Assembly (NCBI RefSeq): GCF_058153355.1
Contig: NZ_CM177019.1
Length of the DNA: 64,000 nucleotides
Reading direction: 5' to 3' (one strand)
The translations under genes were made by a program, and so were the position numbers. How positions within the stretch are numbered: the stretch's first letter is position 1; each line of letters opens with the position of its first letter. Under the pieces are notes generated by a model that searched no databases, was not told the origin of the DNA, and saw only the letters and a list, made by a program, of their open reading frames with translations. Shown one piece after another: positions 44,934 through 45,100 of this stretch.

Positions 44934-45100
44934 AACGCCTGTGCGGTAAGCTCAGGTTCCGGGGAAATAGTGTCCATCATTTTAATGGGCACTATCATGG
45001 AAAATGGCTCTGTCACATTAACAGCGAAAGTTGTTGACCAGCCGGATGGATGATTTTTTTGCAACCAGAAGACACTGCCTCCGATCCGGCTTACAACAAG

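Follow-up and report, generated by a model that had tools for sequence, protein, structure and literature searches.

Probable Rho-dependent transcript ends around the spacer between convergent LRR and dadX genes in Escherichia coli

Transcripts ended by Rho are described in PMC6061677 as having steady-state 3' ends at precise positions, each immediately behind a stable stem-loop with no U tract; such stem-loops shield the RNA from PNPase and RNase II, and the Rho utilization (rut) sites are located just downstream. The subject of this analysis is the 167-nt spacer (44934-45100) that separates the stop codons of two convergent genes, a leucine-rich repeat (LRR) gene and dadX, in a window of 64,000 nucleotides from an E. 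coli chromosome (NCBI RefSeq assembly GCF_058153355.1, contig NZ_CM177019.1). This spacer is probably a composite, terminator-less 3' region of the two genes, where Rho and not an intrinsic terminator ends transcription. Taken strand by strand, a Rho-dependent end is likely for dadX, by analogy with K-12, and has about an even chance of being correct for the LRR gene, where we infer the fate of the LRR-sense RNA.

The locus shares with the described class a stem-loop without a U tract, a 3' end after it, C-rich RNA downstream and, in the K-12 ortholog, a read-through that is sensitive to bicyclomycin. It differs from the class in having a branched structure of 70 nt, the halves of which are seemingly of different origins. 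Compared with the K-12 locus (PMC7815308), which is without the LRR gene, Rho would act here on RNA antisense to that gene. The dadX/LRR spacer would therefore be placed as an individually undescribed member of a well-known Rho-dependent class. The features that carry the comparison are the following.

43521..44933, plus strand: LRR open reading frame (ORF), 470 amino acids (aa), with a Pfam LRR_4 match
45101..46171, minus strand: dadX, catabolic alanine racemase, 356 aa, with Ala_racemase_N and Ala_racemase_C matches
45030..45099, minus strand: Y-shaped stem-loop in the dadX 3' untranslated region (UTR), folding energy -24.6 kcal/mol in the window and -25.4 kcal/mol in K-12
45031-36/45094-99, 45040-47/45084-91 and 45068-73/45077-82, minus strand: helices P0, P1 and P2 of the Y structure, respectively
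44603..45000, minus strand: candidate Rho loading region, untranslated, C-rich and G-poor, downstream of the stem-loop, with its strongest part in 44603-44820
45054..45271, plus strand: region antisense to the 3' end of dadX where Rho could load on LRR read-through RNA (candidate), with a C/G ratio of 1.6-2.1 and 35-38% C

The gene calls and coordinates of the original prediction, which was made from the sequence alone, proved correct, the LRR_4 domain and both racemase domains being matched.

The 3' end of the dadAX transcript

The orthologous spacer of K-12 MG1655 is 93.8% identical over 226 nt, and neither its stem-loop nor its dadX stop is different from that of the window. Two 'orphan' Term-seq 3' ends, 1240020 and 1240019 (both on the plus strand), are listed there in two separate condition tabs of supplementary file 1 of PMC7815308. 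The tabs of this file are LB OD 0.4, LB OD 2.0 and M63 glucose, and by their position in the file the two tabs in question are taken to be LB OD 0.4 and LB OD 2.0. These ends fall 71 and 70 nt beyond the dadX stop (1239949), and the flanks quoted for them finish in ...CCGGCUGGUCAGCAAC-3' and ...CCGGCTGGTCAGCAAC, at the base of P0. Folding places them 0-1 nt past this helix, and the homologous position in the window is ~45030..45031 on the minus strand. The steady-state 3' end of the K-12 transcript (+70/+71) is thus located right after a stable stem-loop of about -25 kcal/mol without a U tract.

A Rho termination region was identified in K-12 at 1240513 on the plus strand, with a Rho score of 43 and p = 3e-70 (PMC7815308, supplementary file 2). 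This score, for which reads are counted in 800-nt windows, is one of the stronger values in a comparison with roughly ten neighbouring rows, which have ~3-6. Reads upstream and downstream of 1240513 were 392 and 9 in untreated cells, and 303 and 300 with bicyclomycin (PMC7815308). Since downstream reads equal upstream reads under bicyclomycin, nothing intrinsic in the K-12 spacer stops the polymerase on the dadX strand, and it is Rho that stops it further on. The available main texts of PMC7815308 and PMC6061677 do not single out the dadX case, the 3' end being labelled merely 'orphan', and the TERMITe supplements contain no match for the locus.

The Y-shaped stem-loop is predicted to be the protective 3' structure of the dadAX mRNA. 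Folding of 44920-45115 gives -66 kcal/mol on the plus strand and -65 kcal/mol on the minus strand, with z of about -4.6 on both as compared with shuffled sequences; an Rfam search of 44600-45400 at a permissive threshold returned only chance matches, the best one (E = 0.29) to a human long non-coding RNA model. The spacer was aligned among 13 E. coli alleles, including that of the window. P0 and P1 are retained in all 13, barring single broken pairs in two of them: substitutions 45091 and 45097 each break one pair in one allele. Five substitutions fall in the three helices, and the remaining three preserve pairing on the minus strand, where those at 45034 and 45089 give G.U pairs and that at 45078 turns a G.U into an A-U. 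Because of G.U pairs the Y structure is valid on the minus (dadX-sense) strand only, where most of the alleles have 0 mismatches, versus 3 A.C mismatches on the plus strand. On the strand of the structure the alleles thus lend support but do not decide the matter. The stems show no significant depletion of variable sites, which make up 6 of 62 paired and 17 of 105 unpaired positions.

Four differences in a stretch of 11 nt (45024, 45026, 45028 and 45034) set the allele of the window apart from the majority. The T at 45034 was identified in this allele alone among the 13, and renders P0 perfect. The allele as such is a rare form of the spacer, found at 99% identity or more in just 16 genomes.

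RNA downstream of both stop codons was analysed by its C/G ratio in 78-nt windows, for which the whole stretch has a median of 1.0, with 1.53 as the 90th and 1.73 as the 95th percentile. On the dadX strand, RNA from +101 to +258 has a ratio of 1.4-1.67 and belongs to a stretch common to K-12, and RNA from +281 to +498 (44603-44820) reaches 1.5-1.94 with 36-40% C. The latter is antisense to the 9-nt-periodic CTGGAGGA repeats (44657-44809) of the C-terminal third of the LRR gene. In the LRR-sense RNA the C-rich stretch comprises +121 to +338, in agreement with a GC skew of -0.15 to -0.22 across dadX. In both directions the downstream C/G ratio equals or exceeds the 90th percentile given above. 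The downstream RNAs, untranslated, C-rich and G-poor, are rut-like by composition, and the binding of Rho to them is predicted.

The sequence of events proposed for the dadX strand starts with a polymerase that would pass the stop codon and transcribe the Y-shaped stem-loop, apparently built on one arm of an ancestral palindrome resembling the repetitive extragenic palindromes (REP). It would continue into untranslated C-rich RNA antisense to an IS66 scar and to the 3' part of the LRR gene, where Rho would load and release the transcript a few hundred nt downstream. Exonucleases working from 3' to 5' would then trim it back to the stem-loop, leaving a dadAX mRNA with a 3' UTR of ~71 nt that ends at ~45030. 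On the LRR strand, where the ORF would end inside the scar by chance, transcripts would cross the hairpins of the insertion sequence (IS) and a T7 run and enter C-rich RNA antisense to the dadX 3' end, with Rho as the expected stop. A short convergent overlap, limited to a few hundred nt, is likely.

Several points weigh against this explanation. All of the experimental support comes from K-12, and both the 3' end and the Rho dependence would reach the LRR-carrying strain by transfer. Beyond about +250 nt the K-12 RNA differs, with an IS1414 remnant, ymgM and antisense cvrA in place of antisense LRR, and the best rut-like stretch of K-12 (C/G 3.2-3.9), which covers +381..520, runs antisense to the end of cvrA and lies close to the Rho region, is absent here; the ratios of 1.5-1.9 in the window are only moderately rut-like. 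The 800-nt windows of the Rho score leave the exact release site imprecise, and some of the reads induced by bicyclomycin could arise from promoters between dadX and 1240513, e.g. that of ymgM. The trimming of the dadX end by exonucleases would follow a general pattern. Neither 3' ends nor Rho regions are listed for the opposite (LRR-sense, antisense-dadX) strand near the K-12 locus. Finally, no compensatory double substitution was identified in the Y structure among the 13 alleles, the divergence of which is too low.

Intrinsic terminators and rival explanations

The search for an intrinsic terminator dealt with the features below, in addition to the Y structure.

44917..44996, plus strand: left-end remnant of an IS66-family element, with the inverted repeat GTAAGCG and the leader up to the would-be tnpA start, recognised by plasmid homology
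44921..44938, plus strand: H0, a 7-bp hairpin over the LRR stop codon, inside the IS66 inverted repeat
44967..44995, either strand: H1, an 11-bp hairpin ATAGTGTCCAT-N7-ATGGGCACTAT without a T run after it, -13.7 kcal/mol (plus) and -12.5 kcal/mol (minus)
45054..45060, plus strand: T7 run with no stable hairpin abutting, an A-run in the loop of the Y structure on the minus strand

A consensus scan of 44000-46000 identified three terminator-like sites, all intragenic and none in 44934-45100, and shuffled sequences gave 1.9 +/- 1.4. A score of our own, of the d'Aubenton-Carafa type, combined hairpin energy and T-tail and was calibrated on seven real intrinsic terminators, four of them textbook terminators and three with sequences quoted in the K-12 Term-seq table. 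The calibrators gave d from 0.2 to 70, the weakest being ycgB (d = 0.2), and the best values in 44934-45100 were -6.2 on the plus strand and -33 on the minus strand, below all seven. No GC-rich stem-loop with a U-rich tract 0-2 nt behind it was found in this interval. A bidirectional intrinsic terminator is likewise absent, the A7/T7 run being located in the loop of the Y structure and flanking no stem, and the K-12 ortholog is not insensitive to the inhibition of Rho (the published 9/392 untreated versus 300/303 with bicyclomycin). The statement of the original prediction that the interval has no strong hairpin-plus-T-run is borne out on both strands by the scan and by the calibrated score.

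The internal positive control of the scan was the terminator of the ycgB/fadR pair at ~49355-49370, a textbook bidirectional terminator (CCCCTCGTTTGAGGGG) that has an A run on one side and a T run on the other, with d = 7.2 and 42.2. This pair is also convergent and has one short common spacer. It differs in its GC-rich hairpin with A/T-run flanks, to which the LRR/dadX spacer holds nothing comparable. Scores above 0 were obtained at only ~8 of the 49 long-frame ends of the window, and a gene end without an intrinsic terminator is nothing unusual in it.

The candidate of the plus strand is the T7 run, which together with the imperfect structure of 44995-45053 might be taken for a weak intrinsic terminator of the LRR gene. 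It holds the top score of the interval (d = -6.2, with a T score of 4.7), just below ycgB, and its geometry would be right if a 4-bp A/U stem (UCAU/AUGA) closed beside the run. That stem closes a weak, imperfect fold of 59 nt, is separated from the rest by a 6x5 internal loop, contributes just -2.4 kcal/mol and is lost from the minimum free energy (MFE) fold of the longer transcript; the strong part of the structure stops 9 nt short of the U run. The run is polymorphic (T6C, T7 and T8) among the LRR-carrying alleles of E. coli, and its conservation is explained equally well by its location in the loop of the dadX-strand structure, so we regard a terminator at this run as quite unlikely. A somewhat better case, still an unlikely one, can be made for the Y stem-loop (or H1) as a non-canonical terminator that works by its hairpin alone, perhaps aided by NusA/NusG or by polymerase collisions, with +71 as the true termination point. 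The 3' end falls 0-1 nt after P0 in two conditions, P0 is perfect in the window allele and is followed by UUUCGCUGUU, and the ancestral short spacer likewise has only a GC-rich hairpin without T runs; according to a preprint (10.1101/2022.10.23.513370), collisions of polymerases between convergent genes favour termination in both directions. However, bicyclomycin restores the downstream reads of K-12 (300/303), which leaves little room for a release without Rho; the score of the structure is d = -39, versus 0 or more in real terminators; and the tail in K-12, UGUAGUUGUU, is even less U-rich, with the 3' end there all the same.

Convergent transcripts might also run far into the neighbouring genes, antisense RNA or transcriptional interference then coupling the LRR islet to alanine catabolism, as was first proposed for this interval. 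The absence of an intrinsic terminator speaks for it, as do the K-12 polymerases that cross the spacer when Rho is blocked (300 versus 303 reads) and the few hundred nt of overlap expected even with Rho. That read-through can occur is one part of the original prediction that stands. It is not unchecked: untreated K-12 has downstream reads at ~2% of the upstream level (9 versus 392), and the mapping in K-12 gives the dadAX mRNA a defined 3' end inside the interval. No evidence was found for read-through that reaches dadA; it is plausible that transcripts extend by a few hundred nt and overlap the 3' region of the neighbour. The RNAs downstream of both genes are untranslated, C-rich and G-poor, neither antisense-dadX 3' ends nor Rho regions are recorded in K-12, and no promoter-like site was identified upstream of the LRR ORF (42700-44000), which gives no sign of strong transcription. 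The spacer moreover persists in ~3400 genomes without the LRR gene and is therefore not maintained for coupling. The coupling is unsupported by these data and we consider it improbable, to about the same degree as a terminator at the T7 run. More improbable still is an elaborate version in which a chimeric stem-loop (5' arm 45084-45096, old 3' arm at ~42853-42862 and a new arm 45031-45047 recruited or selected as protective) and a Rho-limited overlap with the type-III-effector-like LRR gene would add up to a real antisense link to alanine catabolism. Rho-dependent ending at both genes continues to be the explanation preferred here.

Origin and variation of the spacer

The LRR-proximal part of the spacer has its origin in an insertion sequence. 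In blastn searches, ~44901-44996 matched plasmids with 78-82% identity to multi-copy Pantoea, Serratia and Raoultella sequences among the matches listed, and plasmids of Enterobacter, Klebsiella and Edwardsiella matched as well. In two Pantoea plasmids the match is located directly upstream of a tnpA-tnpB-IS66 transposase set and starts at the left inverted repeat GTAAGCG, an inverted copy of which closes the other end of the element. Position 44917-44996 of the window aligns to the inverted repeat and adjacent leader of these two elements, each with its left and right inverted repeats (IRL/IRR), and the homology stops at ~44996. Neither tnp genes nor a right inverted repeat were identified and only ~80 bp survive, making this a remnant and not an element. 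The last five codons of the LRR ORF and its stop codon (44931-33) are contained in it. H0 is part of the inverted repeat, and H1 is a conserved palindrome of the IS66 leader that is also found in the Pantoea copies (ATAGTGTCCAT...ATGGACAYTAT); judged by this homology, H1 is not an evolved terminator. Among the 13 alleles, three of its four variable sites fall in the loop. The scar is common to K-12 and all 12 other alleles examined. Because its end is an IS66 scar, the LRR ORF is without a terminator of its own. A minus-strand sequence next to dadX, GTAAGCCGGATCGG (GTAAGCC...), was considered as the right repeat of IS66, which would turn the interval into something like a miniature inverted-repeat transposable element (MITE); its alignment to IRL/IRR was no better than that of shuffled sequences, and the idea was dropped, an arm of the E. 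albertii-type palindrome (GTATGCCGGAT) being the better match.

The spacer was identified in 4235 of 5426 complete E. coli genomes (~78%), and most of the LRR gene in only 833, so the spacer is not specific to the islet. K-12 has lost the LRR gene and retains its last ~50-110 nt and the whole spacer beside dadX. The gene order around the two convergent genes is completed by three others.

41098..42834, plus strand: cvrA
43003..43401, minus strand: orf132, a 132-aa ORF divergent from the LRR gene
46181..47485, minus strand: dadA

In 1040 E. coli genomes, including the type strain ATCC 11775, dadX and cvrA are directly convergent, as they are in E. albertii, Citrobacter and Enterobacter, with spacers of ~56-110 nt. 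That of ATCC 11775 has 56 nt and a 13-bp GC-rich hairpin without T runs; those of the three other taxa contain REP-like palindromes and no homolog of the LRR gene or of orf132. The description of the LRR segment as acquired agrees with this distribution, which shows the segment to be an insertion that later decayed in many lineages. Traces of the decay are the IS1414 remnant of K-12 and the IS3 copies in O157 and UTME-3.

The dadX-proximal part of the spacer resembles a REP or a bacterial interspersed mosaic element (BIME) in several respects. The dadX-cvrA spacers of the relatives are GC-rich palindromes of the GCCGGAT...ATCCGGC type, e.g. in E. albertii, with the 13-bp stem in ATCC 11775 and the REP-like palindromes CCGGGT(G/A)G...CACCCGGC/TTACCCGGCCTAC in Citrobacter and Enterobacter. 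The palindrome motif of the relatives survives in arm P1 of the Y structure. The spacer differs from such elements in being single-copy in E. coli, in a loop expanded to 36 nt and in the K-12 annotation, which has no REP here. The multiple copies of ~35-bp imperfect palindromes that define REP/BIME were not found, a 221-nt query matching a median of 1 place per genome at the sensitivity of blastn. On the dadX side, the arm GTAAGCCGGAT is similar to GTATGCCGGAT, the 5' arm found in the palindrome of E. albertii, and 42853-42862 next to cvrA (reverse complement GTATCCGGTG) resembles the ancestral 3' arm, at 28 nt from the cvrA stop, the same distance as in ATCC 11775. These likenesses suggest that an ancestral hairpin was divided when the segment inserted, and today's 3' arm (45031-45047) may be new.

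The interval between dadX and cvrA is a rearrangement hot spot with at least 4 structural alleles in E. coli: the short hairpin of the ancestral type (1040 genomes), the complete LRR islet (833), decayed IS1414/IS3 islets (most of the remainder of the 4235) and a GC-rich HH45-type allele, very rare with 2 genomes. The ~100-nt 'IS1414 (partial)' of K-12 (locus 4189-4290, with the ymgM start ATGGACGACAAAC) was identified at 42884-42983 of the window, inverted relative to cvrA and dadX and bounded by an imperfect inverted CAGGCTC(A/T)GGCT motif. From this layout, an inversion or rearrangement seems to have taken place at the islet's left edge.

The LRR domain of the protein (~aa 145-360) resembles those of the type III effectors YopM, SlrP, SspH1/2 and IpaH (PDB 4ow2, E = 5e-31), and no NEL ligase domain was identified in the protein; one source terms it a type III effector. 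In a check for truncation of the ORF relative to longer homologs, all of its close relatives belonged to E. coli and Shigella; they have 437-486 aa and cover ~99% of the query, so that their end is presumably common, and distant matches have the LRR domain alone in common. Neither Pfam nor NCBIfam gave a match to the product of orf132; of the loci examined, only that of the near-identical strain 24A16CRGN010 contained a match, and the dadX loci of other species did not. The NCBI pipeline labels cvrA as an incomplete pseudogene with a missing C-terminus in strains with the islet or a variant of it, 24A16CRGN010 among them. With 578 aa, the cvrA frame of the window is complete and can be aligned over its whole length with E. 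albertii CvrA, and its differences from the K-12 protein are confined to the last ~8 residues.

With this analysis the dadAX operon would gain a 3' UTR of defined length (~71 nt) and a mechanism by which its transcript ends, and the published 'orphan' 3' end of K-12 can be assigned to dadX. A regulatory overlap, if true, would tie a horizontally acquired effector-like gene to D-/L-alanine catabolism; nothing here points to that, and beyond annotation the significance is slight. An LRR ORF that ends in an IS66 scar is not to be expected to have its own terminator, and where a hairpin-plus-T-run is missing in E. coli, the usual reason is termination by Rho and not unchecked read-through.
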